Shown in pieces: positions 298-49,262 of a stretch of 64,000 nucleotides of DNA (the stretch's first letter is position 1; every line of letters starts with the position of its first letter). A model generated the notes under the pieces. That model searched no databases. It was not told where the DNA came from and worked only from the letters and a program-made list of their open reading frames with translations. The DNA is from a virus. Taxonomy: Duplodnaviria; Heunggongvirae; Uroviricota; Caudoviricetes. The DNA lies in IMG/VR virus record IMGVR_UViG_3300047323_000678. One strand, 5' to 3'. The position numbers and the translations under genes were made by a program.

Positions 298-555
298 ATG
301 AAAAAATTATTTTTTATTAATTCATTTATCCTTATTGTATTTATCTTTAGTGCAGAAATAAACGAATATCTTACTAATTATTATTATCAATTACATAATT
401 ATTTTTACAATTATTATTTCCATCTATATAATTACTTCTATAATTGGTCTATATTAAAACTTTTACTTACTTTTTTAGTAGTGATAATAGTAGTTGGGTT
501 TTCCACTGGAATTATTAGTAATATATATAAATTAAAAATAATCAATAAAAAATAA
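298..555 (+). CDS. Small membrane protein with an internal Tyr/Asn-rich repeat
   Basis: Two hydrophobic segments; YYYQLHNYFYN / YYFHLYNYFYN repeat; flanked by terminators. Confidence 0.5.
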   Translation: MKKLFFINSFILIVFIFSAEINEYLTNYYYQLHNYFYNYYFHLYNYFYNWSILKLLLTFLVVIIVVGFSTGIISNIYKLKIINKK

Positions 556-581
556 AAAGGGGCTACTGCCCCTTTAGTTTT

Positions 582-995
582 TTAATTTTTTGCAATTTGT
601 TGAACTTCAACAATCAATGCATCAAATTTCTCTCTTGTAATTAGTTCTTTAAATGGTTCATAAAGAAGATTGCTATAATATTGATTAGGATAGTTACTGG
701 TAAAAAAACTTAGAGCAGTGAGATAGCCTACAGTATGCTCTATAAATCCTCTTGATAATGGCTTGCCTCTAACAATATTATAAAGAATATGATGTTCAGG
801 ATGTAAAAATCCTTTAACTTTTACTTTATGAATTTTAGATTCATATTTTCTAGTATTAGGATTATAAACTTTAATTTCTTCTTCTTTATAAATTGGCTTT
901 CTTCTCTTATCATTGCTAGCAGTCTTCCACATAGCAATAAATTCTTGTTTAGTAATAGTTTGTATCTGTTTAATTTCATTGTTAATAGTTTCCAT
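582..995 (-). CDS. Hypothetical protein (HHILYNIVRGKPLSRGF motif), last gene of the Pth-like operon
   Basis: 137-aa ORF, strong SD TAAGGAG at 1002-1008, preceded by a hairpin and a minigene leader. Confidence 0.8.
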   Translation of the reverse strand: METINNEIKQIQTITKQEFIAMWKTASNDKRRKPIYKEEEIKVYNPNTRKYESKIHKVKVKGFLHPEHHILYNIVRGKPLSRGFIEHTVGYLTALSFFTSNYPNQYYSNLLYEPFKELITREKFDALIVEVQQIAKN

Positions 996-1005
996 AATAA
1001 TCTCC

Positions 1006-1064
1006 TTAAGTTGTAAATGGAATTTTTTAATTTTTACTTCTATTTTTAAACATTCACTACTTAA
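1006..1064 (-). promoter_or_regulatory. mRNA hairpin overlapping the SD of the 582..995 gene
   Basis: Arms UUAAGUAGUGAAUG (1064-1051) and CAUUUACAACUUAA (1019-1006) pair at 13 of 14 positions including one G-U; the 3' arm includes the first bases of the SD. Confidence 0.6.
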
Positions 1065-1070
1065 TAAAAA

Positions 1071-1097
1071 TTATGGTGGTTTAAAGATCTACAACAT
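1071..1097 (-). other. Leader minigene ATG TTG TAG ATC TTT AAA CCA CCA TAA (ML*IFKPP*)
   Basis: SD AAGGAG at 1104-1109; same ATGTTGTAGAT start as the Pth-like gene. Confidence 0.7.
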
Positions 1098-1113
1098 ATT
1101 ATTCTCCTTGATA

Positions 1114-1278
1114 TTATTTATTTATTTTTTGATTTTTTAATGCAGCAATGTACCCTGCTTTAAAATAATCCCAAGATAACAGCCATTCATAAGTATCTCT
1201 GAAATGATCATTTTCTTTTTCCTTTGACCAAAATTCATAAATTTGTAGGTCTAAATCTTCTTCATCTATCTCAGACAT
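1114..1278 (-). CDS. Small hypothetical protein (54 aa, MSEIDEEDLD...WDYFKAGYIAALKNQKINK), not in the ORF track
   Basis: Hand translation; start overlaps the end of the upstream gene and it fills the operon gap. Confidence 0.65.
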   Translation of the reverse strand: MSEIDEEDLDLQIYEFWSKEKENDHFRDTYEWLLSWDYFKAGYIAALKNQKINK

Positions 1279-1780
1279 TTTCATTACCTGTAGCTTGATT
1301 TTCCGCTTCTTCTTTTTTCTGTCTATCTACATCATCAGAAAATTCTTTCCATAAGCGCTGTCCTTCAGCCTTACCCCACTTAACAGTGCTAGTAATTCCA
1401 AATAATTCTTCGGCATGACATCTAGAGCAAGAACTAGGAAAGCCAGTGCAATCACCACTATGAATGTCAGATAATCCATATATATAAACGGTTTTAAACC
1501 AATCATTATCTACAAAAGCTTCAATAATGTCATCATTCCATCTATTCATGTATTTATTCCATCTTTCAATCGACCTTTCTGCTTCTTTTTCTACCATTTC
1601 TTTTGTGTAAGGATAGCTTGGTTCTTTCCCTTTAGTTAATTCATAATGCTGAATAAGAAAATGTATCATTTCCCAAATATTATTTTCCATTGCATAGCGA
1701 GCTTTAGCTAATTTGATTTCACTTTCTGATGGCTCATAAGCTGGCGGATTTAAAATTTCTTGATTTTTATATTTATACAT
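1271..1780 (-). CDS. Hypothetical protein with an HxGDC-x6-C-x2-CH putative metal-binding motif
   Basis: HSGDCTGFPSSCSRCHAEELFGI; SD GGAGA before ATG at 1780. Confidence 0.75.
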   Translation of the reverse strand: MYKYKNQEILNPPAYEPSESEIKLAKARYAMENNIWEMIHFLIQHYELTKGKEPSYPYTKEMVEKEAERSIERWNKYMNRWNDDIIEAFVDNDWFKTVYIYGLSDIHSGDCTGFPSSCSRCHAEELFGITSTVKWGKAEGQRLWKEFSDDVDRQKKEEAENQATGNENV

Positions 1781-1794
1781 AATATTCTCCAAAA

Positions 1795-2388
1795 TTAGTT
1801 TTCATCTTTAAAATGTTCATTTTTATAATTAACTAGCCAATCATGTGCTAATTTAGCGTCAGCCATCCAACGCGGAACATATTGCTCATATCCACCTAAT
1901 TTTTTCCATGCTTCACTAGTATAATGAGCAGGATTAATTTCATAATTAGCCAAATAAGCAATTGCTTCATCTATGCTTTTTTCATTATTTTTGCCAAAAG
2001 CCCCACCAAACTTATTAGCAGCATGTTTTCCTAATCCTGGAATGGTATCAATTCCAAGCAAATATTCAGCATGGCACTTAGAGCAAGAACATGCAACACA
2101 AGTGCAATCTCCAACATGATTCCCTTGTAATTCAGTAATATAATGCTCTAACAATTGATCACATCTTTTATCAATATCTGATTTTTCATCAGTACAATAA
2201 TATTCAGGATCGGCCGATTTTCTAGCAGATTCCAAGTCAAAATGTTTTCCTTCTTGCAAATTAAAATGAATATCAAAAAGTAATTCTTCCATCTGTTCTA
2301 ATTTAATTTTTAACCACATTTCTTTTTTATTATGTTCATCCAAATCTACAGTGGTATAAAGCGGATTTTTGTGATAATTAATTTTCAT
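1795..2388 (-). CDS. Hypothetical protein sharing the motif of the adjacent gene
   Basis: HVGDCTCVACSCSKCHAEYLLGI. Confidence 0.8.
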   Translation of the reverse strand: MKINYHKNPLYTTVDLDEHNKKEMWLKIKLEQMEELLFDIHFNLQEGKHFDLESARKSADPEYYCTDEKSDIDKRCDQLLEHYITELQGNHVGDCTCVACSCSKCHAEYLLGIDTIPGLGKHAANKFGGAFGKNNEKSIDEAIAYLANYEINPAHYTSEAWKKLGGYEQYVPRWMADAKLAHDWLVNYKNEHFKDEN

Positions 2389-2399
2389 TTTATTCTTCC

Positions 2400-2771
2400 T
2401 TAATTATATTGTTCGTTTTTCTTTTCTGCTTCAAAAATTTCTTCCCAAGTAAAAGTATGATAAACACAATTCCAATGTTCTTCTGCTTCCCAAGAAAGGT
2501 GAATTCCTTCATGACTTACTCTTGCTTCATCATGTTCTAAATGATTTCCACTTCTAGAATATGGTGCAATGTTTTGTTCTTCAGATAATTGTTGTGCAAT
2601 TTCTTTATACTTATCAGTTATTTTTCTTAAATTTTCTTTATGCCATGAGGTTTCATTATAATAATCGCGGTCAGCTTTAGTCTTGATTTCTGAACGCTTA
2701 TTTTTTGCTTTTGAAATTTCTGTAATAGATTGCTGAATATTAGTTTTGATATCTTCAATTTTGTCATTCAT
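2400..2771 (-). CDS. Hypothetical protein
   Basis: 123-aa ORF with SD GGGAGA, within the operon. Confidence 0.75.
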   Translation of the reverse strand: MNDKIEDIKTNIQQSITEISKAKNKRSEIKTKADRDYYNETSWHKENLRKITDKYKEIAQQLSEEQNIAPYSRSGNHLEHDEARVSHEGIHLSWEAEEHWNCVYHTFTWEEIFEAEKKNEQYN

Positions 2772-2787
2772 TTTATTCTCCCAATAA

Positions 2788-3237
2788 TTAATTATATTTA
2801 GCCATTAAGCGTGCAAGTTCAGCTTTTTCTGCATCTTCTTGACGCTGTTTTTCACGAAGTCGAAATGCTTCCTGATCTTGTAATTTACGCTCAGCAATTT
2901 CCTTATCTTTCTTTTCTTTTTCAGCTTTTAATTTTGCATAAATTTCAGTAGCTAATGTTTCAATGTCAGAAGCATGCGAAATTAATTTATCTTGATCTTC
3001 ATTGCTTAATGAATCATGTAAATCATTTGCATTATGTCCATTAATAAGAAGAGTGATTTCGGCATCAGAATTAGTAAACATAGAATAGCCATAATGCTGA
3101 ACAAGATCATTTCTCTCCATATCACTAAAGTGTCGAATTTCAAGATTGGAATCTTGTCCAGTATGGTAATCACCACAACGGTCATGCCAACCTTGTTCGC
3201 CAGGAGTATAAACAATAAGGGTATAAAGTGTTTTCAT
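2788..3237 (-). CDS. Hypothetical protein with a C-terminal coiled coil
   Basis: ATG at 3237 overlaps the TAA of the Pth-like gene (TAATG); SD CAGGAG; ends ELARLMAKYN. Confidence 0.75.
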   Translation of the reverse strand: MKTLYTLIVYTPGEQGWHDRCGDYHTGQDSNLEIRHFSDMERNDLVQHYGYSMFTNSDAEITLLINGHNANDLHDSLSNEDQDKLISHASDIETLATEIYAKLKAEKEKKDKEIAERKLQDQEAFRLREKQRQEDAEKAELARLMAKYN

Positions 3238-3575
3238 TATTTGTTCTCCTGTTTTGGATGCCAAAGCTTGAAATTTTTAAAAAGATGGCGATGCTTTTCA
3301 GTAATAGGCTTAGTAGCGAATGCAGTTAAACCTGTATTCTTATAAGGCTCAAAAAATGGATAGCAATCAATTTGCGGACGAAATTCTGCCAGCAAAGATT
3401 CTAATTCTTCTTTGTTTTTAGTACCGAAAATAATAATGGAATTTGCTTCGCTAGATGCTGAGTTTGCTAACCCAGATTCATGAGCGGCATGAGAAGCTTG
3501 AACAAGCTGCTGAGGGATTGAAATATCTTGACGGACGAAGATATAGACATATTTTTTTTCAGCAATCTACAACAT
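3237..3575 (-). CDS. Peptidyl-tRNA hydrolase, Pth2-like, with an in-frame TAG at codon 3 (putative readthrough)
   Basis: ML*IAEKKYVYIFVRQDISIPQQLVQASHAAHESG...FFEPYKNTGLTAFATKPI...FKLWHPKQENK; Pth2-type xVRxD, QxxHA and LTA motifs; SD TAGGAG; no in-frame ATG or GTG after the TAG. Confidence 0.8.
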
Positions 3576-3610
3576 AATATTTCTCCTAATAAAGTTAAGT
3601 AAGTGAAGCT

Positions 3611-3640
3611 ATTGTAGACTTAAACAATCTTTTATGTCAA
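3611..3640 (-). promoter_or_regulatory. sigma70-type promoter TTGACA-N18-TACAAT for the Pth-like operon
   Basis: Consensus -35 at 3640-3635 and -10 at 3616-3611. Confidence 0.6.
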
Positions 3641-3663
3641 GCACAATTTTAAAAATATTTAAA

Positions 3664-4377
3664 TTAAATTTTAAGTCGTTTTTTAGAGCGATTAGGTTCT
3701 TTTTCTTCATTAATTGATAAATTTGTGACTAGATCATTTTTCAATAAATTATTGTCCAAAAATGGTTTTGAATCCTGTGTTAACTTTACTCTTATATGAT
3801 GTGGATTAAATCCTACATCTTTAAGGAAATAATATTGCGGATTAATTTTAAAATTCAAATGCTCTTGAGACAAAAAGAACTTAACTACAGGATCATTAGA
3901 AGATTTGGCAGCTAAATCAAATTCATTAAGCATGGCTTCATTACCTATCGTTTCACAAATATGAGGATATGAAGTCAAAAGAATAATATTATCTATATGC
4001 CCAAATTTACAAGATAAAGAAAATCCGCGTTTGTAAGGTGGATTAAATTTAATAGCTGTAGCATGATGAATTAAAACTTTTAAACTTTTAAATAAATTGT
4101 TTTTACAAGCATGAAGAAAAAAATCATTTAATTGTGAATACGGATTAGGTTTAATATTTTCATATGGCATCAAATAATCAACAATTTCATGGTGATCATT
4201 ATTTAATGCTTGCATGAGTCCGTTATAACCATATTCATGCAAATTTACATTATGTTTGAGGCTTTTGTCATGCATAAAATATTTTACAAAATCTAACCTC
4301 CCCCTTATACAAGCTTCAATAAATATATCTTCAACCTCTCCTTGGGAGTAATCATCTTCATTTATAATATTTTTCAT
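3664..4377 (-). CDS. Ankyrin-repeat-like protein with the C-terminal basic tag
   Basis: FIEACIRGRLDFVKYF, ALNNDHHEIVDYL, SCKFGHIDNI repeats; ends SKKRLKI. Confidence 0.7.
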   Translation of the reverse strand: MKNIINEDDYSQGEVEDIFIEACIRGRLDFVKYFMHDKSLKHNVNLHEYGYNGLMQALNNDHHEIVDYLMPYENIKPNPYSQLNDFFLHACKNNLFKSLKVLIHHATAIKFNPPYKRGFSLSCKFGHIDNIILLTSYPHICETIGNEAMLNEFDLAAKSSNDPVVKFFLSQEHLNFKINPQYYFLKDVGFNPHHIRVKLTQDSKPFLDNNLLKNDLVTNLSINEEKEPNRSKKRLKI

Positions 4378-4561
4378 ACTTAGATGTAATAATAGTTGTC
4401 TATATTCATTTTATTTAATTTTAAGTAGAAATCCAAATTTATATATATTTTTAAATGTATTTTATGGCTGAACACAGTAGAAAAATATATAAAACATTTT
4501 AAAAAATCACGCTATAATCATTACATAAATCAGGAACACATATATTAAAGTGTTTTAAAAC

Positions 4562-4657
4562 TGTCGGGAATTTTTACAGTAGTTAAGAAGTGAAAACCGA
4601 CAGTATATGTAAGTCATTGATTGGATTGGTTTTCTTGTGGTTGGCACGAATTTTGCT
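4562..4657 (+). promoter_or_regulatory. Enhancer (TGT-N11-ACA), IHF site and sigma54 promoter
   Basis: TGTCGGGAATTTTTACA 4562-4578; TAAGTCATTGATT 4610-4622; TTGGCACGAATTTTGCT 4641-4657 (GG-N10-GC). Confidence 0.8.
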
Positions 4658-4717
4658 ACATATCTAGTGTTTCGTAAAATTTAAATTTTCTTCTTAATCC
4701 AAAACTTGGAGGTTCTA

Positions 4718-5398
4718 ATGGTTACTAAATTCAAAACTCTGCTGGCTACTGCAATGATCGCTTTCTCCTTCTCGGCTCAAGCGGGTATTATTTTGACCCA
4801 AGGTACTGCGGTTACTGATCCTTCGCATACTGAAAACTTTGAAAGTGGTACTGCGGGTAATAACATCACTGACCAATTTTCTGCCAATGGTCTGACTTTC
4901 AAAACTTTGGGCGATGCAGGTATTGCTTTGGTTGGTAGCAATGTCTGCCCCAATACCAATGGGGTATCAGGTAAATATCTTGCAATGGGTATGCGGTACC
5001 CATGCACTCAAAATACTGCACTGAATGCAGTTTCGATGATGTTTGATGGTGATGTTGAAGCACTGTCTTGGACTGGTTTCAGCCGCACTATTGGTAATGG
5101 CTTTAAAGTTGAGTTTTGGAAAGATGGTCAAATGCTTGATAGTAATAGCACCTTTTATGACAGCTTCAATAAGTTTGAAAACAAAACTGTCCTCGTAAGT
5201 GGTGGGGTTTTCGATGAAATCCGTTTTATCGAAGCGAGTGGTTTCCAAGGTTTCTTTACTATTGACAACATGGCATGGAAAATGGCTCCTGTTGTAGTTG
5301 AACCGCCTGTTTCGGATGTTCCTGAGCCTAGCATTGCTCTGCTGTTCGGTGCAGGTATGATTGGTATGGGCTTCATGCGCAAGAAAAAGGCAGTTTAA
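4718..5398 (+). CDS. PEP-CTERM sorting-domain protein
   Basis: Signal peptide ending AQA; C-terminal VPEPSIALLFGAGMIGMGFMRKKK. Confidence 0.92.
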   Translation: MVTKFKTLLATAMIAFSFSAQAGIILTQGTAVTDPSHTENFESGTAGNNITDQFSANGLTFKTLGDAGIALVGSNVCPNTNGVSGKYLAMGMRYPCTQNTALNAVSMMFDGDVEALSWTGFSRTIGNGFKVEFWKDGQMLDSNSTFYDSFNKFENKTVLVSGGVFDEIRFIEASGFQGFFTIDNMAWKMAPVVVEPPVSDVPEPSIALLFGAGMIGMGFMRKKKAV

Positions 5399-5488
5399 AT
5401 TGGCAATAATCTGAGAAAACCTAGCCAAGAGGCTAGGTTTTTTTGTATTTAAAATTTGGAAAAATGATTTTCTACCGAAAATTTTAAT

Positions 5489-5583: not shown

Positions 5584-5638
5584 CTATAATAAATACAATT
5601 TAAAGTAGTTTCTATCAATGTTCAAAAGAGGGGATTCC

Positions 5639-6322
5639 ATGATGACTAAATTTAAAGCACTGATTAGTGCAGCATTGTTTGCTGTTTCTTTCTCGGCTCA
5701 AGCCAATATTATTCTTAATGGTGATAAAGGACTAACCAATACCAATCATTTTGAAAATTTTGATAATGGTTCTGTAGGAAATAATGTATCAGAACAATTT
5801 GCAAGTAATGGAATTAATTTTGATACTTGGGGCAAATCGGGTATTACTTTGACTACCAATAGTGTCTGCAACAATGCTGATGGTGGCATGTCAAATCAAT
5901 ACCTCATGATGGGTATGGCTTATCCATGTGCTAAAGACAATAAAAAAGTCAGTATGGTGTCACTGATGTTTTCAGAAAATGTTTCGGAACTGTCTTGGTT
6001 AGGCTTTAATCGTGCGATTGGCAAAGGTTTTACTATTCAGGCTCTTTATGATGGCATGATTGTTTCAGAGCTTGATTTTGATAATAAAAATCAATTTGAA
6101 AACAAGTATGTAAACATCTCAGGTGATATTTTCAACGAACTACGCTTCATTGAAAACGGCAACTGGACTGGTTCGTTTGGTATTGATAACATGGCTTGGA
6201 ATGTAACTACAGCAGTTCCAAGTGGTGAAGTTCCATTGCCTGGCTCTGTAGCCTTGATGGGCATTGGTATGCTTGGATTAGGTTTCATGCGTAAAAGGTC
6301 TAATCAGGTTAATCGTAACTGA
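5639..6322 (+). CDS. PEP-CTERM (VPLP variant) protein, paralog of the upstream gene
   Basis: Signal peptide; C-terminal VPLPGSVALMGIGMLGLGFMRKR; shared QFxxNG, FENK and IDNMAW blocks. Confidence 0.9.
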   Translation: MMTKFKALISAALFAVSFSAQANIILNGDKGLTNTNHFENFDNGSVGNNVSEQFASNGINFDTWGKSGITLTTNSVCNNADGGMSNQYLMMGMAYPCAKDNKKVSMVSLMFSENVSELSWLGFNRAIGKGFTIQALYDGMIVSELDFDNKNQFENKYVNISGDIFNELRFIENGNWTGSFGIDNMAWNVTTAVPSGEVPLPGSVALMGIGMLGLGFMRKRSNQVNRN

Positions 6323-6694: not shown

Positions 6695-8905
6695 TTACAA
6701 TTTTACTTTTTTAGCTTTAGTTGTTACATTTGGCTTATCTAATTCTGTATGAAGATCAGTATAAAATAAATGCTCTTTCAAATGTTCTTCGTATTTACTT
6801 TTTACACCTTGATTTTCAAAGAATTTAGTGACAAAAGATGGAATATCTTGATGAGGAAAAAAGTTTCTATCCATTAGTTTTGCAAATCCTAATGCAAATT
6901 TGGCATTAGTAAATAATTCTTGTGGAATATCTTTAATATCCTCTTTATTTTTAGTTAAGCATAAAAGTGCAATATCACAATTATATGCAACAGAAGAATC
7001 TAATTTACTGTATGGAAGCTTACCTAATTCTAGAAGTTTATAAACTATTGATTTTTCTTTTTTAAGATGACTAGGTAATGATTCATAAAATAGTCCAGAT
7101 AAAAATTTATAATTATTAAATCCATGCTCTTTAACTTTTTCAAAAATTTCAAACACCTCTTGAACAGTAGTTATTTCGCTTAAAGATTTCTTTTTAAACT
7201 CTGTACTTCTAGAACCATAATCATCTTTTTGATAAAACAAAAATTCAGGTTTATGGTATTTTTCCTTAAGTTTATTTAAATCGTCACCTGTAACTCTTAA
7301 TTCATAATAGAAGTCATCAATAGCTCGCTTTTCAATAAGAAAAATAAGTTTTATACGCTCAATTTTTGGATCATGATCTAAGTATAATAAAGGAAGCATT
7401 GCTTTTTCAGATATATAACTTGGGCTTAATCCCCCTTCTAGTGCAGCAACAGTAATATCGTTATCATAAGCATACTTGTTTAATTTATCATATTTTTGTC
7501 CATTAATTGAATCTAAAAATGATTTATTAACTTTAGCCAAATTTTTAACAAATTCTTTATCAATATCTTTGTCTTGATAAAAAGTAGAAATCCAATCAGC
7601 TAATTTCCATGAACTCATATTTTTAGCACATGACAAAAGGAATTGTTTGTCTTTTAAAATTGGAAAATCACCTTTATAACTTAAAGATCTTTTAACTTTT
7701 GCTGTATCAACATGTTCAATCACAGATGAAAGAACGAAAGGTTCATTAAATAAGGCTGACTCTAATCCAAAAATAATATCTTCATTAACACTAACATAAC
7801 CATTATCATGTTTCTTTAATGCTAGTTGAATACATTTTTTAGCAATATCATGATTTAAGCGTTTATCTTTATCCAGAAACCTATAGGCAGAAGCTAAGGT
7901 AAACTGATTTGAAGCATTTCTAAATATATCGTCATTAGTAAAATTCTGATTAAGTAAATAATCAATAGTTTCTGGTTGATTAAAAAGGTATTCAAAATCA
8001 ATTGTGTTTAGTAGCCTTTTGCTTATTTTAGATGCATCCTCATTATCATATTTTCTTTTGTAATCTCCAAAAGAATTAAATAATTGTTCTAATAAATCAA
8101 AATGCCTATTTTTAACTTGCTCCAATAGTTTTTCTTTGAATATAGGTTGAGAATAATCAATAGAATAAATATCTGGATTGTTTTCATTGTAACGCTTAAT
8201 AAAAAATTCATTTAATGAGTGTGAATTTAAATCCATAAGAGCTAATTTAAACTCATCTGAGTGAGCAAATTCAGGATTAATCTTATCTAATAAATTTTTG
8301 AATAATTTATCATAGTTATCATCAGAAGATTTTCTTCTTACATCAAATATTTCAGATACTTTTTCTAATACATAATTTAAATCTCCATACATATCTGAAT
8401 TTAATTGTTGCCAGGTTACTTGTCCTCTAGTTTTTTTAATTTTTTCAGGATTTTCACTTAAGGCAGATGCAGCAGTAGAGTAATGCATATCTTCAGCATC
8501 AATAATATTTAGTTCTTCAGATAAAGGAGATAAGTTATTGCCTTTAATTAGTAATAAATTATCGCCGTTTTCTGGTAATTGAATATAAGATTTTTCATCA
8601 TTATTGTAAACATTCTTAATATATTCAAATAGACCTTTTCCTGATTCAAAAATAGATGGACTACCCAAATCTAAATGAATTAGATTTGATTCATTCCCAG
8701 CATTAATAATATAAAGTGCTAAATTTTTGTGAAGATCTTTCTCAAAATCTCCAGTAATAGCAAATACATGATGTTTTTTTGGATTTTCTATATATTTCTT
8801 TAAATCTTCAAAATTTATTTTTACTTTTTGATTATTATAAATAACATCATCCTTAGTTGGATCAACTAATTTTAAAAGCTCACTTGTTAATATTTCTGTT
8901 TTCAT
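6695..8905 (-). CDS. Large hypothetical protein with DUF4116-like C-terminal helical repeats and the basic tag
   Basis: Paralog of the next gene (shared MKTEI, LHKNLALYIIN, GQVTWQ, IPSFxTKFFENQ); ends AKKVKL. Confidence 0.75.
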   Translation of the reverse strand: MKTEILTSELLKLVDPTKDDVIYNNQKVKINFEDLKKYIENPKKHHVFAITGDFEKDLHKNLALYIINAGNESNLIHLDLGSPSIFESGKGLFEYIKNVYNNDEKSYIQLPENGDNLLLIKGNNLSPLSEELNIIDAEDMHYSTAASALSENPEKIKKTRGQVTWQQLNSDMYGDLNYVLEKVSEIFDVRRKSSDDNYDKLFKNLLDKINPEFAHSDEFKLALMDLNSHSLNEFFIKRYNENNPDIYSIDYSQPIFKEKLLEQVKNRHFDLLEQLFNSFGDYKRKYDNEDASKISKRLLNTIDFEYLFNQPETIDYLLNQNFTNDDIFRNASNQFTLASAYRFLDKDKRLNHDIAKKCIQLALKKHDNGYVSVNEDIIFGLESALFNEPFVLSSVIEHVDTAKVKRSLSYKGDFPILKDKQFLLSCAKNMSSWKLADWISTFYQDKDIDKEFVKNLAKVNKSFLDSINGQKYDKLNKYAYDNDITVAALEGGLSPSYISEKAMLPLLYLDHDPKIERIKLIFLIEKRAIDDFYYELRVTGDDLNKLKEKYHKPEFLFYQKDDYGSRSTEFKKKSLSEITTVQEVFEIFEKVKEHGFNNYKFLSGLFYESLPSHLKKEKSIVYKLLELGKLPYSKLDSSVAYNCDIALLCLTKNKEDIKDIPQELFTNAKFALGFAKLMDRNFFPHQDIPSFVTKFFENQGVKSKYEEHLKEHLFYTDLHTELDKPNVTTKAKKVKL

Positions 8906-8925: not shown

Positions 8926-11175
8926 TTATAATTTTATGCGTTTATTTTTAACTTGAGTAGGGGCATCTAAATCACCTTGCATTTCTTTATAAGATAAATG
9001 CATTTTTAAATAATTTTGATAATCACTAGTAACTTCTTGATTTTCAAAAAATTTAGTAATAAAGCTAGGTATGTCTTTCTCTTCAAATAAATGTTGATCC
9101 ATTAATCCTGCAAATTTAATTGCAAAATTAGAGCTACTAAAGAATTCTTGTGGAATCTTTTTTAAATCTTCAGGTGAACTCGCTAAACATTTAATAACGA
9201 TATCAGTGTTATATGCTAAATTTTCATCTAAAGATGAATAACTAATAGGACCCATCTCTAAAATACGAGTAATAATTTGTTTATCTTTTCTAAGAGGCTT
9301 ATGTAATGAATTATAGAAAAAATTAGCATTAAAGTTATAATCAAAAGAATTGCTATCTATATTATTCAATATTTCTAAAATATTTTCAGCTTTTTTAAAT
9401 TTTGCTAATAGCTTGCTTGCATGATCATATTCAGAATACCAATCATCAACTTTATAAAACATATATTCTACTTTTTCATATTTCTCTTTAACTTTTTCAA
9501 CTTCTTCAGGGCTGTATCCCATATGTTTAAATCTACTTACAATATCTATAATATCCCGGTTTTCAATAAAGTATCTAATTTTTAAATCCTCATATTTTTT
9601 TTCATGATCTTCTAATAGTAAGTCATACATAATGTGAGAGCTAATATTTTTTAAAATTGTTCCCCCTTTTATTGCAATTGAAATTATTTCCATATTTTTT
9701 GCAAATTCTGGCCAATTTTCACTTAAAGAATTATAAAACCCTGGTTTATTAGCTATAAGCTCTTTAAAAAAATCTTTAGTTAACATACTTTTATCTAAAA
9801 AATTTTTAATCCAAGATTTTAATTTATAACCATTTACACCATGATTAGATAATATAAATTCTTTATCAGCTAAAACTGTCGGTTTTATTTGATTTTGTTT
9901 CAAAAATTTTTTCAATTCTTCAAAATCCACAGCATCTATAATATTACTTAAGAATTCTTTTTCATTAAATAATTCAGGTGGTAATTTAAATAATTTAGTT
10001 CTATTAATACTTCTTGAATCTCTTCCATTTGAATCTGTAATCAATCGTAAATATTTTTTAATTATTTCAGAGTTATTTTTATTTGTTTCATTAAGTAAAC
10101 CATAAACTGAAACAACATCAAAATCAGTATCTTTACGAGAATAACTAGAATTATATTTATCAATCAAATGCTTGACTGTTTCAGGTTGATTAATAAGTAA
10201 TTCAAAATTTATATTAGAAGTTGGTTTTGCAGAATTACCACGATATGATGTCGTTTGTTCATACATGCTAAGTTCAGATAAATAAGGTGCAATTAATTTT
10301 TCTAATAAAGTAAAATTATCAGTTTTTATTAACTGCATTAATTTATCTTGAAATATGTCCTCAGAAAAATCAATATAAAATAATCTTTGAGTTTTTTCTT
10401 TAGCATAAAATCTATTAACCAAATCGCTATTAATAGATTTTTTATTCATATCAATAAGTGCCAATTTGAAACTATCAGAATTAAGGACTTTAGCATCAGC
10501 CATTGCAATAATTTTATTAAAATCATCCTTAAATGAATCAACTGAGTTAGTTGAATATCTAGATTGTCTTGAATACTCTGCATCTGAACCTGCAATATTT
10601 TTAATTTTTTCTAATACATAATCCAAGTTAGCATAGTTGTTGTAATTATCTTCTTGCCATGTAACTTGACCTTGATTAGTCAATTTATCATTTTTTAAAG
10701 TATTAAGATCAATTTTGGTCATATCTGAAAACAAAGAGCCGATACTTGCATAATGAGTATCAATAGCACTATTAATTGCACCAGAATTTGAAAGAGGTTC
10801 TAGTTTTTTACTTTTAATTAAAAGAAGATTATCTCCTACTTCATCAAGATTAATGTAGCAGGTTTTATTTTTGTTATATATGCATTTAATATATTCAAAT
10901 AATCCTTTTCCTGGTTCAAATATATATTCATTATTTAAATCAATGTGAATAATATGCGAATCATCAGTAGAATTAATAATATAAAGAGCTAAATTTTTAT
11001 GTAGATCATTTGTTAAATCACCATTGAGATTAAAAACCTCATTTTTCTTTGGCTGATCAACAAATTCTTTTAATTTTTTAAAATCAATTTGTACTTGCTG
11101 ATTTTTATAACTTATTTCTTCTTTTATAGGATTGACAATCTTTAAGAGGTCACTTATAGAAATTTCTGTTTTCAT
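8926..11175 (-). CDS. Large hypothetical protein, paralog of 6695..8905, with the basic tag
   Basis: Same conserved blocks; ends NKRIKL. Confidence 0.75.
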   Translation of the reverse strand: MKTEISISDLLKIVNPIKEEISYKNQQVQIDFKKLKEFVDQPKKNEVFNLNGDLTNDLHKNLALYIINSTDDSHIIHIDLNNEYIFEPGKGLFEYIKCIYNKNKTCYINLDEVGDNLLLIKSKKLEPLSNSGAINSAIDTHYASIGSLFSDMTKIDLNTLKNDKLTNQGQVTWQEDNYNNYANLDYVLEKIKNIAGSDAEYSRQSRYSTNSVDSFKDDFNKIIAMADAKVLNSDSFKLALIDMNKKSINSDLVNRFYAKEKTQRLFYIDFSEDIFQDKLMQLIKTDNFTLLEKLIAPYLSELSMYEQTTSYRGNSAKPTSNINFELLINQPETVKHLIDKYNSSYSRKDTDFDVVSVYGLLNETNKNNSEIIKKYLRLITDSNGRDSRSINRTKLFKLPPELFNEKEFLSNIIDAVDFEELKKFLKQNQIKPTVLADKEFILSNHGVNGYKLKSWIKNFLDKSMLTKDFFKELIANKPGFYNSLSENWPEFAKNMEIISIAIKGGTILKNISSHIMYDLLLEDHEKKYEDLKIRYFIENRDIIDIVSRFKHMGYSPEEVEKVKEKYEKVEYMFYKVDDWYSEYDHASKLLAKFKKAENILEILNNIDSNSFDYNFNANFFYNSLHKPLRKDKQIITRILEMGPISYSSLDENLAYNTDIVIKCLASSPEDLKKIPQEFFSSSNFAIKFAGLMDQHLFEEKDIPSFITKFFENQEVTSDYQNYLKMHLSYKEMQGDLDAPTQVKNKRIKL

Positions 11176-16864: not shown

Positions 16865-17641
16865 ATGAGAAAAAAAGTACTGATTTCCTTAGTTTTTAGT
16901 GTTTCTTTGAATATTCCTATTGTTGCATTTGCTCAGCAACCAGGAAGACTAACAGCAAATATTCCTGCCATTCGTGGTTTAGTATTAGAAGAAGTGCAAT
17001 TTGACTGTGCGGAATTCAAACCAAATTTAATTACAAAATTTCTTTGGAAAGAAGGTCCAACTCGTGGATTGCTGTATAAAAAGTGTTTAGAGCAAACTCA
17101 AGATGATGAAAAATTTGAGAAATATAATGAGTCAATGATTAATGATTCTAATATTGGAGACTTATCAAATGATATTAAAAATGCTCAAACAAAATTAACC
17201 ATATTAACTTTAACTACTGCACTTAAAAATTATTTAATGGACCCAGAAACTAATGAGGATAAAATGGTTTTAATTAAAAACGCAGTAGAAAATTTTAAAC
17301 AACATTATGTTGAGAAAAAGTCTTTAATTGATAATGAAATAAAATCCATGAAAAATAAAGAAAACAGGCGTGGTTTAGAACTTGTTTCAATTATTGAAGA
17401 AAATGAAACTGAGCTAGGTGAAAATATTGATTCTACAATTAAATATATGGAGTTTGTTTTAAAAGATAGACATGCATATGTTGCAGCACATAATAAATTT
17501 TTACCTAAGATTTATGTTGACCCTAAACATTTCTTAGATGCAAATCTTTCTAAGTATGAATGTGAATTTCTTAGCATAAATATTGGAGAAAATTGGAATC
17601 GTATGAAAAAGGGCTTGCAAATTACTTGTGGTAAAAAATAG
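16865..17641 (+). CDS. Secreted hypothetical protein
   Basis: Signal peptide ending AFA; four Cys. Confidence 0.7.
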   Translation: MRKKVLISLVFSVSLNIPIVAFAQQPGRLTANIPAIRGLVLEEVQFDCAEFKPNLITKFLWKEGPTRGLLYKKCLEQTQDDEKFEKYNESMINDSNIGDLSNDIKNAQTKLTILTLTTALKNYLMDPETNEDKMVLIKNAVENFKQHYVEKKSLIDNEIKSMKNKENRRGLELVSIIEENETELGENIDSTIKYMEFVLKDRHAYVAAHNKFLPKIYVDPKHFLDANLSKYECEFLSINIGENWNRMKKGLQITCGKK

Positions 17642-18919: not shown

Positions 18920-19303
18920 ATGGAAGAAATTCTAAATTATCAAGGTAAAGTCCTAATCAGGCAAGACAGTTTTGCAAATGAGATTGTTCGTTATGCAAAT
19001 GGTTATTTTCATATGAATAATGGTGAATTATTTGTTGAACTACTTGAAAAATCCCCATTTAAAAATTTTCAATTTAGTAAAAGTCGTTTTATTGCTCAAG
19101 TAGAAATACAAGAGCCTAATTTATTTAGAATTTTTGATTTAAATCTTGAACCAACTGAAATGAAATTTTTTGAACAAGAAATTCTACAATTTAAAGTAGA
19201 AATAAATAATGATTTTAAAACATTTAAATCATATTTGGAGAAAAAGCAGTTGGAATACGAACTAAATATTAATAAAGAGAAACATAAAGTTAAAAAAATT
19301 TAG
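18920..19303 (+). CDS. Hypothetical protein with the C-terminal basic tag
   Basis: Paralog of the previous gene; ends HKVKKI then TAG. Confidence 0.75.
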   Translation: MEEILNYQGKVLIRQDSFANEIVRYANGYFHMNNGELFVELLEKSPFKNFQFSKSRFIAQVEIQEPNLFRIFDLNLEPTEMKFFEQEILQFKVEINNDFKTFKSYLEKKQLEYELNINKEKHKVKKI

Positions 19304-48972: not shown

Positions 48973-49224
48973 ATGACAACTAAAAATGAAATTAGTGCAT
49001 GGTTTGATGAAGGTCTTAATAATCCAGATAAGCCAACTCATATGATTATTGTTTGTGACACTTATGACCATGAGGATTATCCTGTTTATGTGCTGCCAAC
49101 AGAAAATGTTCACCAGGTATATAAAAACAAGGATGGAAATAATATGCAGCGTGTTACGGAAGTATATAAGCTGACAGAAGATAAAGAAAAACAAATCAAT
49201 CAATCTCGTTGCTTTAACTTTTAA
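48973..49224 (+). CDS. Small phage-type hypothetical protein
   Basis: THMIIVCDTYDHEDYPVYV; SD AGGAGG. Confidence 0.75.
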   Translation: MTTKNEISAWFDEGLNNPDKPTHMIIVCDTYDHEDYPVYVLPTENVHQVYKNKDGNNMQRVTEVYKLTEDKEKQINQSRCFNF

Positions 49225-49262
49225 AAGGAAGCCCCTAAATGGGGCTTTTTTAATATCTTTAT

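Follow-up and report, generated by a model that had tools for sequence, protein, structure and literature searches.

Organization of gene A in the window

We analyzed a stretch of 64,000 nucleotides recorded as IMG/VR virus record IMGVR_UViG_3300047323_000678 (hereafter called the window, which means the whole stretch) and focused on a small gene on its minus strand, here named gene A, which carries an in-frame TAG as its third codon and whose product is predicted to adopt the fold of a type 2 peptidyl-tRNA hydrolase (Pth2). We refer to this TAG as the gate and to genes with such an early in-frame stop codon as gated. The elements of gene A are the following.

3640..3611, minus strand: promoter-like site TTGACA / 18 nt / TACAAT, with 11 of 12 consensus matches
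3587..3583, minus strand: Shine-Dalgarno (SD) sequence AGGAG, with a 7-nt spacer to the ATG
3575..3567, minus strand: head of gene A, ATG TTG TAG, with ATG at 3575..3573, TTG at 3572..3570 and the TAG gate at 3569..3567
3566..3237, minus strand: post-gate frame of gene A, with ATT (3566..3564) as the first of 109 sense codons and TAA at 3239..3237

The coding frame is unchanged across the TAG, being the same as that of ATG-TTG-TAG. With its 7-nt spacer the AGGAG is positioned for initiation at the ATG (3575), the ATT at 3566 being 16 nt away. At the other end of the gene, the final A of the TAA at 3239..3237 is also the first base of the start codon (ATG, 3237..3235) with which the following open reading frame (ORF) opens. 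A preliminary description, made from the sequence alone, had given the same minus-strand layout of SD sequence, ATG TTG TAG, 109 open codons and TAA/ATG overlap, and its coordinates and wording proved to be correct. The translated product is devoid of methionine and its three valine codons are GTC, GTC and GTT; therefore, no ATG or GTG occurs in frame past the TAG, as had also been claimed, and the earliest start-type codon in this frame is a TTG at 3395. The promoter-like site scored highest on the minus strand within 400..4700, a result that reflects a consensus match only. The sequence upstream of gene A, promoter-like site included, is kept in two related loci, L002 and L004 (related loci are designated by L and a number).

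The gate is conserved among relatives of gene A

A word-indexed protein search retrieved 36 relatives of gene A, none of them named and none with a Pfam domain, and many of these proteins set in abruptly, at the first beta strand or within it. At the DNA level, 86 related loci were collected (76 from metagenome contigs, nine from viral contigs and one from genome contigs). After omission of L034, which has no upstream sequence, the window and the other loci, 86 in all, were reduced to 70 distinct loci at 97% identity. Going upstream in frame, the first stop reached is TAG in 65 of the 70, TGA in three (L037, L081 and L086) and TAA in two (L017 and L082). Both loci with TAA have ordinary ATG starts, the match at L086 is a spurious short one, and L037 is the sole clear case of a TGA gate. 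Homologs thus do keep a TAG among their first codons, a point on which the preliminary description had made its proposal depend. Among the 16 nearest loci, 15 have the TAG 1-7 codons past an SD sequence and ATG, and throughout the TAG-gated relatives it is found 1-7 codons past an ATG or GTG. The peptides encoded ahead of the gate vary, those in the 16 nearest loci being ML, MM, MEKIPRI, MQM, MTM, MSQS, MKKL, MKTLDKL and MLDRL, and further homologous heads across the family read MT, MS and MPDS before the stop.

When the post-TAG frame of the window was compared with those of L002, L003 and L004, ratios of nonsynonymous to synonymous substitution rates (dN/dS) of 0.22, 0.13 and 0.12, respectively, were obtained, and judged by these values the frame past the TAG is under purifying selection. 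We also considered that the gene might be dead, its TAG being due to a CAG-to-TAG nonsense change or to a miscalled base in the assembly. Such a change requires only one transition, and some relatives do have glutamine at the gate position. This explanation is opposed by the presence of TAG in 65 of 70 distinct relatives, which come from many assemblies and include cultured phage genomes, by the dN/dS values, and by a downstream operon that is intact and syntenic. Because the TAG is kept in 65 of the 70 loci and dN/dS amounts to 0.12-0.22, a pseudogene or base-calling error can be dismissed for practical purposes, and the preliminary description was right in taking the TAG for programmed instead of a random nonsense mutation.

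The gene A family is large: a threshold of E ≤ 1e-3 gives 2,191 clusters, and one of E ≤ 1e-10 gives 802. Among the best 150 family representatives, 66 are without a head; gene callers systematically miss or truncate the gated gene A.

Some related loci show further arrangements. At L049, a second ORF (1495..3312, about 495 codons) has the head of the Pth2-like gene (MPDS-stop-V..), lies in the same frame and terminates at the gate TAG of the Pth2-like gene itself. On the viral contig L085, an ORF at 4550..5455 opens with ML-stop-MDLH.. and might represent a third kind of TAG-headed gene. The ungated homolog at L082 (2992..3126) has an ordinary ATG and stays open for just 45 codons; it is preceded by a gated leader, ML-stop-VKKPP-stop, and a distance of 311 nt separates a tRNA(CUA), a tRNA whose anticodon is CUA, from the stop that lies upstream of this homolog.

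Suppressor tRNAs accompany the gate in many relatives

T-arm signatures of tRNAs were seen in translations just upstream of many homologs. With ARAGORN, 36 of the 65 distinct loci gated by TAG were found to contain a same-strand tRNA(CUA). Fourteen of these tRNAs lie at most 150 nt upstream of gene A and 12 are found 600-900 nt downstream, past the next gene. The tRNA(CUA) genes are often part of phage-like tRNA arrays, and suppressor-type tRNAs account for 45 of the 166 tRNAs that ARAGORN reported in the related loci. At L037, where the gate of gene A is TGA, a tRNA with anticodon UCA is situated 49 nt upstream; the leader of this locus (see below) is likewise TGA-gated and has TAG as its terminal stop.

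The ungated homolog of L017 has ATG CAA, with the CAA at the gate position, and glutamine occupies this position in 21 of 64 short-headed representatives (for example MLQI.., MTQ.., MSQ.. or MPDTQV..). The comparison of these loci suggests that the stop is decoded by a cognate suppressor tRNA, probably as glutamine. In the preliminary description, readthrough had been proposed to occur when termination fails. Readthrough as such is retained here, and the comparative evidence, namely the linkage to tRNA(CUA) and the TGA/UCA pair of L037, favors a dedicated amber-suppressor tRNA over failed termination as its cause.

TAG is an ordinary stop codon elsewhere in the window

With 28.5% GC, the window is AT-rich, and it looks like an ordinary Gram-negative bacterial chromosome with the standard code. 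GGDEF-EAL, FKBP, histidine kinase, YhdP, YidD, PEP-CTERM and ankyrin proteins are encoded in it, along with integrases and an IS605-type element. Among sequencing runs, one DNA data set, possibly the source of the window, was listed as containing this sequence, and no RNA data set was. No Rfam family was matched in the 64 kb. Window ORFs of at least 150 residues end in TAA (34), TGA (11) or TAG (2). The gate might alternatively be a sign that TAG is reassigned throughout the genome or the element, as in genetic code 15 or in pyrrolysine decoding, and it is true that TAG terminates just two of these 47 long ORFs and that ARAGORN labels the CUA tRNAs as 'Pyl'. ORFs do terminate, however, at the TAGs of positions 199-201, 17639-17641 and 19301-19303, which confirms earlier statements that TAG is a true stop in the window. 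Except for gene A and the leader described below, no gene of the window is headed by ATG-x-TAG or needs TAG as a sense codon, and genome-wide recoding had rightly been denied in the preliminary description. Nor are the related loci broadly recoded, since inspection ORF by ORF found the majority of the neighbors of gene A to be without an internal TAG; a coverage test for recoding was noisy on these 6-kb loci, where removal of TGA raised coverage about as much as removal of TAG. The 'Pyl' label derives from the anticodon alone, and the existence of the TGA/UCA version at L037 argues for generic suppression over pyrrolysine decoding. We regard a reassigned code as extremely unlikely.

Gene A encodes a divergent Pth2-like protein

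An AlphaFold model of the gene A protein had a predicted local distance difference test score (pLDDT) of 88. In a Foldseek search with this model, ranks 1-13 were all occupied by Pth2 structures (among them 1wn2, 2zv3, 3erj, 1q7s, 1rlk and 1xty) with a probability of 1.00 and template modeling (TM) scores of 0.64-0.73. Similarly, the Pfam PTH2 model was matched by 32 of 50 family members at E ≤ 0.01, with a best value of 1.5e-11; the homolog at L001, from Planctomycetota, reached 25.3 bits as compared to a Pfam cut-off of 23. When a profile of the 50 members (alignment A3) was run against the PDB, Pth2 2zv3 was matched at E 1.8e-5; a profile of close relatives (alignment A1) gave no Pth2 match there. 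The Pth2 likeness noticed earlier is hence borne out at the level of fold by structure search and family profile; the Pfam search with the window protein itself did not add to it (see below). Sub-threshold Pfam matches of the gene A protein to MTS_N and KH were disregarded, and the family matches two PHROGs of unknown function.

In the alignment to 2zv3, the hhVRxDL strand, the QxxHA helix and the C-terminal TA.A..P motif line up. According to work on Sulfolobus Pth2, the lysine of the Gly-Lys loop and the aspartate reportedly have catalytic roles. An invariant Glu73 of the family stands opposite the Asp of RDAG in 2zv3. Because of this replacement and of a Gly-Lys loop that is two residues shorter, the gene A protein, as modeled, is assigned to a divergent branch of the PTH2 superfamily with a Pth2 fold.

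A TAG-gated leader in the same operon

A second gate lies downstream in the operon of gene A.

1110..1071, minus strand: second gate, consisting of the SD sequence AAGGAG and the leader ATG TTG TAG ATC TTT AAA CCA CCA TAA
985..1079, minus strand: predicted hairpin pairing the 3' end of the leader with the SD sequence and AUG of the last gene, minimum free energy (MFE) -17.1 kcal/mol

The second occurrence of ATGTTGTAG, at 1097..1089 on the minus strand, had been noticed before and taken as an identical start. Its significance can be upheld, as it is kept in relatives; instead of heading a further gene of this type, however, it belongs to a gated leader of 8 codons (1097..1071, minus strand) that reads M-L-stop-I-F-K-P-P-stop. 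As a bare 9-mer, ATGTTGTAG occurred at least twice in 10 of 100 shuffles, and the repeat is for this reason weak evidence, the real evidence being its conservation in relatives. An identical leader is present in L002 and L007, and in the distant L055 the leader follows directly past the Pth2-like gene and shows synonymous changes (ATT, CCT, CCC).

The 70 distinct loci were scanned for a start codon, 1-7 codons, a TAG and then [RK][GASDP]?PP within 11 codons. TAG-gated [RK]x?PP leaders were encountered on the gene strand in 38 of the 70 loci and on the opposite strand in none. Controls with TGA in place of TAG gave two hits on the gene strand, one of them L037, and three on the opposite strand, and with TAA one hit was obtained on either strand. 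The leaders of the relatives are 8-25 codons long and mostly contain RGPP, RAPP, RDPP or RSPP, followed by a stop or running on. RxPP (where x is G or A, in part also S, D or P) has been defined by experiment as a ribosome-arrest core on which elongation factor P (EF-P) has no relieving effect (PMC12992588). In the MFE structures predicted for the window, L002 and L055, the SD sequence and AUG of the gene past the leader pair with a segment whose first bases are the last proline codon and the stop codon of the leader.

Gated genes in cultured jumbo phages

A tblastn search detected homologs of gene A in 27 phage records, mostly of jumbo phages of Proteobacteria with genomes of 180-385 kb. Among seven cultured jumbo phages examined, the gene was gated in five.

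Cronobacter phage GAP32: gated, MAQ-stop-N..
Serratia phage BF: gated, MTH-stop-N..
Acinetobacter phage ME3: gated, MT-stop-I..; annotated "tRNA-OTHER, anticodon CTA" about 430 nt upstream
Salmonella phage Arash: gated, ML-stop-N..; tRNA(CUA) by ARAGORN about 1 kb downstream
Ralstonia phage RsoM2USA: gated, ML-stop-I.., ATGTTGTAGATT head identical to that of the window

The survey of phage loci with ARAGORN covered three of the seven, that of Arash included. In ME3 and Arash a tRNA(CUA) is situated within 0.5-1.3 kb. The phages XacN1 and RAS14 were rejected as examples of gating: there, the Pth2-like domain is fused to a longer ORF and no gate is present at that point. In both proteins (XacN1 ORF364 at L091, RAS14 at L093) the Pth2-like domain is C-terminal and a common N-terminal region (..ELHSNAN.FGGIESDSFKIKFKKWSK..) precedes it. 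Many phage records either have no annotation for the Pth2-like gene or let it begin at an internal start (GAP32_397, ME3 gp266, Arash gp84c), presumably on account of the TAG; the phage loci concerned include L092 2419..2862 and L094 2483..2820. As a further observation on annotation, the tRNA of phage Arash at L090 3807..3881 (record positions 49176-49247) is annotated as tRNA-Phe, and ARAGORN assigns it the anticodon CTA.

Other genes of the operon and its surroundings

In relatives, gene A belongs to a compact cassette in which tRNA(CUA) and the gated gene A are joined by a gated RxPP leader and by a gene for about 90-130 residues that we call gene B, which was detected in 46 loci with a hidden Markov model (HMM). 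The structural model of the gene B family is entirely helical, with a pLDDT of 94; it had no Foldseek match at E ≤ 0.001, and VIA-align returned generic helical hairpins only (Z ≤ 7.0). In the clade of the window, five additional genes separate gene A from the leader, an order that is kept in L002 and L004-L010. The operon continues past gene A as follows.

2788..3237, minus strand: next operon gene, 149 residues from the ATG at 3237, in TAATG overlap with gene A
2400..2771, 1795..2388, 1271..1792 and 1114..1284 (span 1114..2771), minus strand: four further operon genes, syntenic in L002 and L004-L010
582..995, minus strand: last operon gene, 137 residues, at the position of gene B in relatives
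575..556, minus strand: terminator-like hairpin with T run at the end of the operon

Homologs of the gene at 2788..3237 follow gene A in L002 and L005-L010; its product has no Pfam match, a weak match to phrog_14651 and one weak PADLOC match (E 0.0033). Apart from this latter match, the operon proteins gave no Pfam family, no PHROG with a function and no PADLOC defense family. The products of 1795..2388 and 1271..1792 are paralogous and share the Cys/His motif GDCTxxxxxCSxCHAE. On the viral contig L081, a homolog of 1795..2388 follows the Pth2-like gene at a distance of about 1.3 kb. The last gene, 582..995, was tried as a homolog of gene B, with which it has a LYNxxRG motif in common; hhalign gave a probability of just 5.9% and homology was not shown. 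The ESM Atlas held nothing usable for 582..995 or 1795..2388.

Farther away in the window, two adjacent ORFs on the minus strand (6695..8905 and 8926..11175) encode paralogs of 736 and 749 residues with very similar N-termini (MKTEI..SELLK..) and without a Pfam family. Two paralogous proteins of the secreted type are encoded on the plus strand at 4706..5398 and 5618..6322, the first with a PEP-CTERM anchor, and L002 has a homolog in the same place upstream of the ankyrin gene. The segment 47821..63876 is rich in mobile elements and contains genes for an RVT_3 protein, an IS605 OrfB/TnpB-like protein, two tyrosine recombinases, a DUF4238 protein and two DUF285 proteins.

Proposed mechanism and alternative explanations

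In the interpretation that we favor, and which we hold to be reasonably likely, the TAG of gene A is a conserved gate, the protein being made only when a tRNA(CUA) reads UAG as sense, probably as glutamine. Ribosomes that start at the ATG of gene A would either stop at the UAG, releasing Met-Leu, or pass it when the suppressor tRNA outcompetes release factor 1 (RF1), and the output of hydrolase would follow the level of UAG suppression. At the second gate, 2.1 kb downstream in the same operon, readthrough of the TAG would allow the ribosome to reach the Pro-Pro-stop of the leader. A ribosome paused there would be located just upstream of the segment predicted to sequester, by base pairing, the site at which ribosomes bind ahead of the last gene, and would thereby free this site. 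The gene A protein may hydrolyze the ester bond of peptidyl- or aminoacyl-tRNA. Its supply might be matched to the misreading of stops, and it might clear peptidyl-tRNA made by readthrough or limit the suppressor itself; a hydrolase that is made when stops are misread and the load of peptidyl-tRNA rises would be plausible. For the bacterium of the window, the suppressor could be supplied by a tRNA encoded elsewhere in the genome or by a jumbo phage.

Several observations weigh against this interpretation. With regard to the protein, the gene A product did not match Pfam PTH2 (PF01981) at E ≤ 1, and the shortened Gly-Lys loop of the family, which is two residues short of that of Pth2 and has Gln-Gln there, means that hydrolase activity is not assured. 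With regard to the leader, the z-scores of the hairpin are weak (-1.4 for the window, -0.8 for L002 and -1.2 for L055) and MFE folding predicted no fold that masks the SD sequence at L007. The window leader also has a lysine, and no arginine, before Pro-Pro; since arginine was irreplaceable in the RAPP peptides tested (PMC12992588), the Lys-Pro-Pro-stop of the window is a variant at which stalling is presumed. With regard to the inserted residue, an assignment of suppressor isotype by comparison with the nearest tRNA was given up as uninformative, the results being scattered (Arg 15, Asp 4, Trp 3, Gln 2 and others), so that insertion of glutamine is suggested by the aligned residues only. Finally, ARAGORN and Rfam detected no tRNA gene of any kind in the 64-kb window, ARAGORN found none within about 3 kb of gene A in the nine nearest relatives (L002-L010), and no tRNA(CUA) was found in 29 of the 65 TAG-gated loci, many of which are short contigs.

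The lack of a tRNA in the window and near its nine closest relatives is what would be expected if readthrough required no dedicated tRNA, a near-cognate tRNA(Gln) reading the TAG whenever RF1 is slow or overloaded; the amount of hydrolase would then track termination stress. Near-cognate tRNA(Gln) is known to read UAG, ungated relatives have Q at the gate position, and work with minigenes has indicated that release factors act poorly at very early codons such as codon 3. Basal readthrough, however, usually stays well below a few per cent, and a gate that travels with its cognate tRNA(CUA), and that switches to TGA together with a tRNA(UCA), would not be expected for a near-cognate leak. Since the window has no tRNA, tRNA-free readthrough might apply to its copy; as an explanation of the gate we judge it unlikely.

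Another alternative is that ML-stop constitutes an upstream ORF of two codons and that ribosomes reinitiate at the adjacent AUU, codon 4. AUU is a genuine, if rare, start codon, as in infC, and the window and its nine nearest relatives, as well as several distant ones, all have ATT after the TAG, which likewise counts against suppression. In most of the family, however, a non-start codon (GTA, GGG, GGC, GAA, GAC, ACA or AAA) follows the gate, and the SD sequence is 16 nt away from the ATT as compared to 7 nt from the ATG. Furthermore, reinitiation would leave the linkage to tRNA(CUA), the TGA/UCA covariation and the gated leader, which has only five codons past its gate, unexplained. We therefore consider it quite improbable.

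If the gate is opened by suppressor tRNAs as proposed, the chromosomal operon might be a bacterial detector of foreign amber-suppressor tRNAs with an anti-phage role, set off by an altered reading of the genetic code, and the combination of tRNA(CUA), gated Pth2 and gated RxPP leader might be a widespread, hitherto undescribed 'private codon' regulatory cassette of phages and bacteria. An operon with two TAG gates and no tRNA of its own would remain silent until infection by a jumbo phage that carries a tRNA(CUA); the gates would then open, and the hydrolase and the Cys-rich operon proteins might act on phage translation. This extension is put forward tentatively and we hold it to be doubtful.

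Comparison with known systems

The gene prfB, which encodes release factor 2, is autoregulated through an early in-frame UGA and a +1 frameshift. Gene A would resemble it in that an early in-frame stop ties the output of a translation factor to the recognition of that stop. Unlike in prfB, the frame does not change at the TAG of gene A, and the competitor of the release factor would be a dedicated tRNA.

With Pth2 of archaea and eukaryotes (PF01981; 1wn2, 2zv3, 3erj, 1xty and the human Bit1 1q7s), the gene A protein shares the predicted alpha/beta fold. It differs from them in having Glu for Asp and Gln-Gln in a GKGK loop with two residues fewer. PTH2 is known to occur in jumbo phages, and the available part of that article makes no mention of a gate (Iyer et al., PMC7824862); likewise, the accessible portions of the Pth2 literature contained no mention of an in-frame stop.

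Phages that use code 15 read TAG as glutamine, and their suppressor tRNAs have been proposed to time late genes in the study by Borges et al. (10.1101/2021.08.26.457843), in which the words 'peptidyl' and 'hydrolase' do not occur. Recoded phages and gated gene A would have in common that an in-frame TAG makes translation dependent on tRNA(CUA), with glutamine as the likely meaning. In contrast to recoded phages, the standard code is used here and a single TAG, fixed 1-7 codons past the start, is found in only one or two genes of the cassette. A further parallel is given by Xanthomonas phage XacN1, a large phage with the standard code that has the same kind of tRNA(CUA); its authors sought targets of the two CUA tRNAs and found none (PMC5852040). 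For other jumbo phages, such a target would be available in the gated Pth2-like gene, whereas the homolog of XacN1 itself, being fused to a longer ORF, is ungated at that point. Among the openly available articles searched, subscription journals and supplements being outside the scope, no paper was found that pairs a suppressor tRNA with a stop-gated PTH2. A UAG that is kept within codons 2-8 of the Pth2-like gene, that has suppressor tRNAs as neighbors and that gives way to UGA where the tRNA reads UGA would be a dedicated target for the suppressor tRNAs of standard-code phages, for which no purpose has been known, and its occurrence in cultured phages makes the arrangement directly testable. 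The chromosomal form, which has no tRNA, raises the question whether bacteria sense suppressor-carrying phages in this way.

The leaders of the relatives share with the RAPP/RGPP arrest peptides (ApdA, ApdP, ApcA, SecM-like) an R-(G/A/S/D)-P-P motif within a short ORF that immediately precedes a gene (PMC12992588, PMC10951233, PMC7897499). As in those systems, the ribosome-binding site of the gene past the leader might be masked by the predicted hairpin, whose z-scores are weak. In contrast to the RAPP/RGPP peptides, the leaders described here are short, are preceded by an in-frame TAG and show no linkage to Sec or YidC; the version of the window has Lys-Pro-Pro followed directly by a stop, at which arrest is presumed from the sequence. 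A gated leader of the arrest type would represent a new coupling of nascent-peptide stalling to the decoding of a stop codon. Finally, in engineered UAG switches, a UAG near the N-terminus imposes dependence on a suppressor tRNA (PMC6412442), just as is proposed here. Those switches are synthetic, whereas gene A is natural and conserved and would thus be their counterpart in nature.

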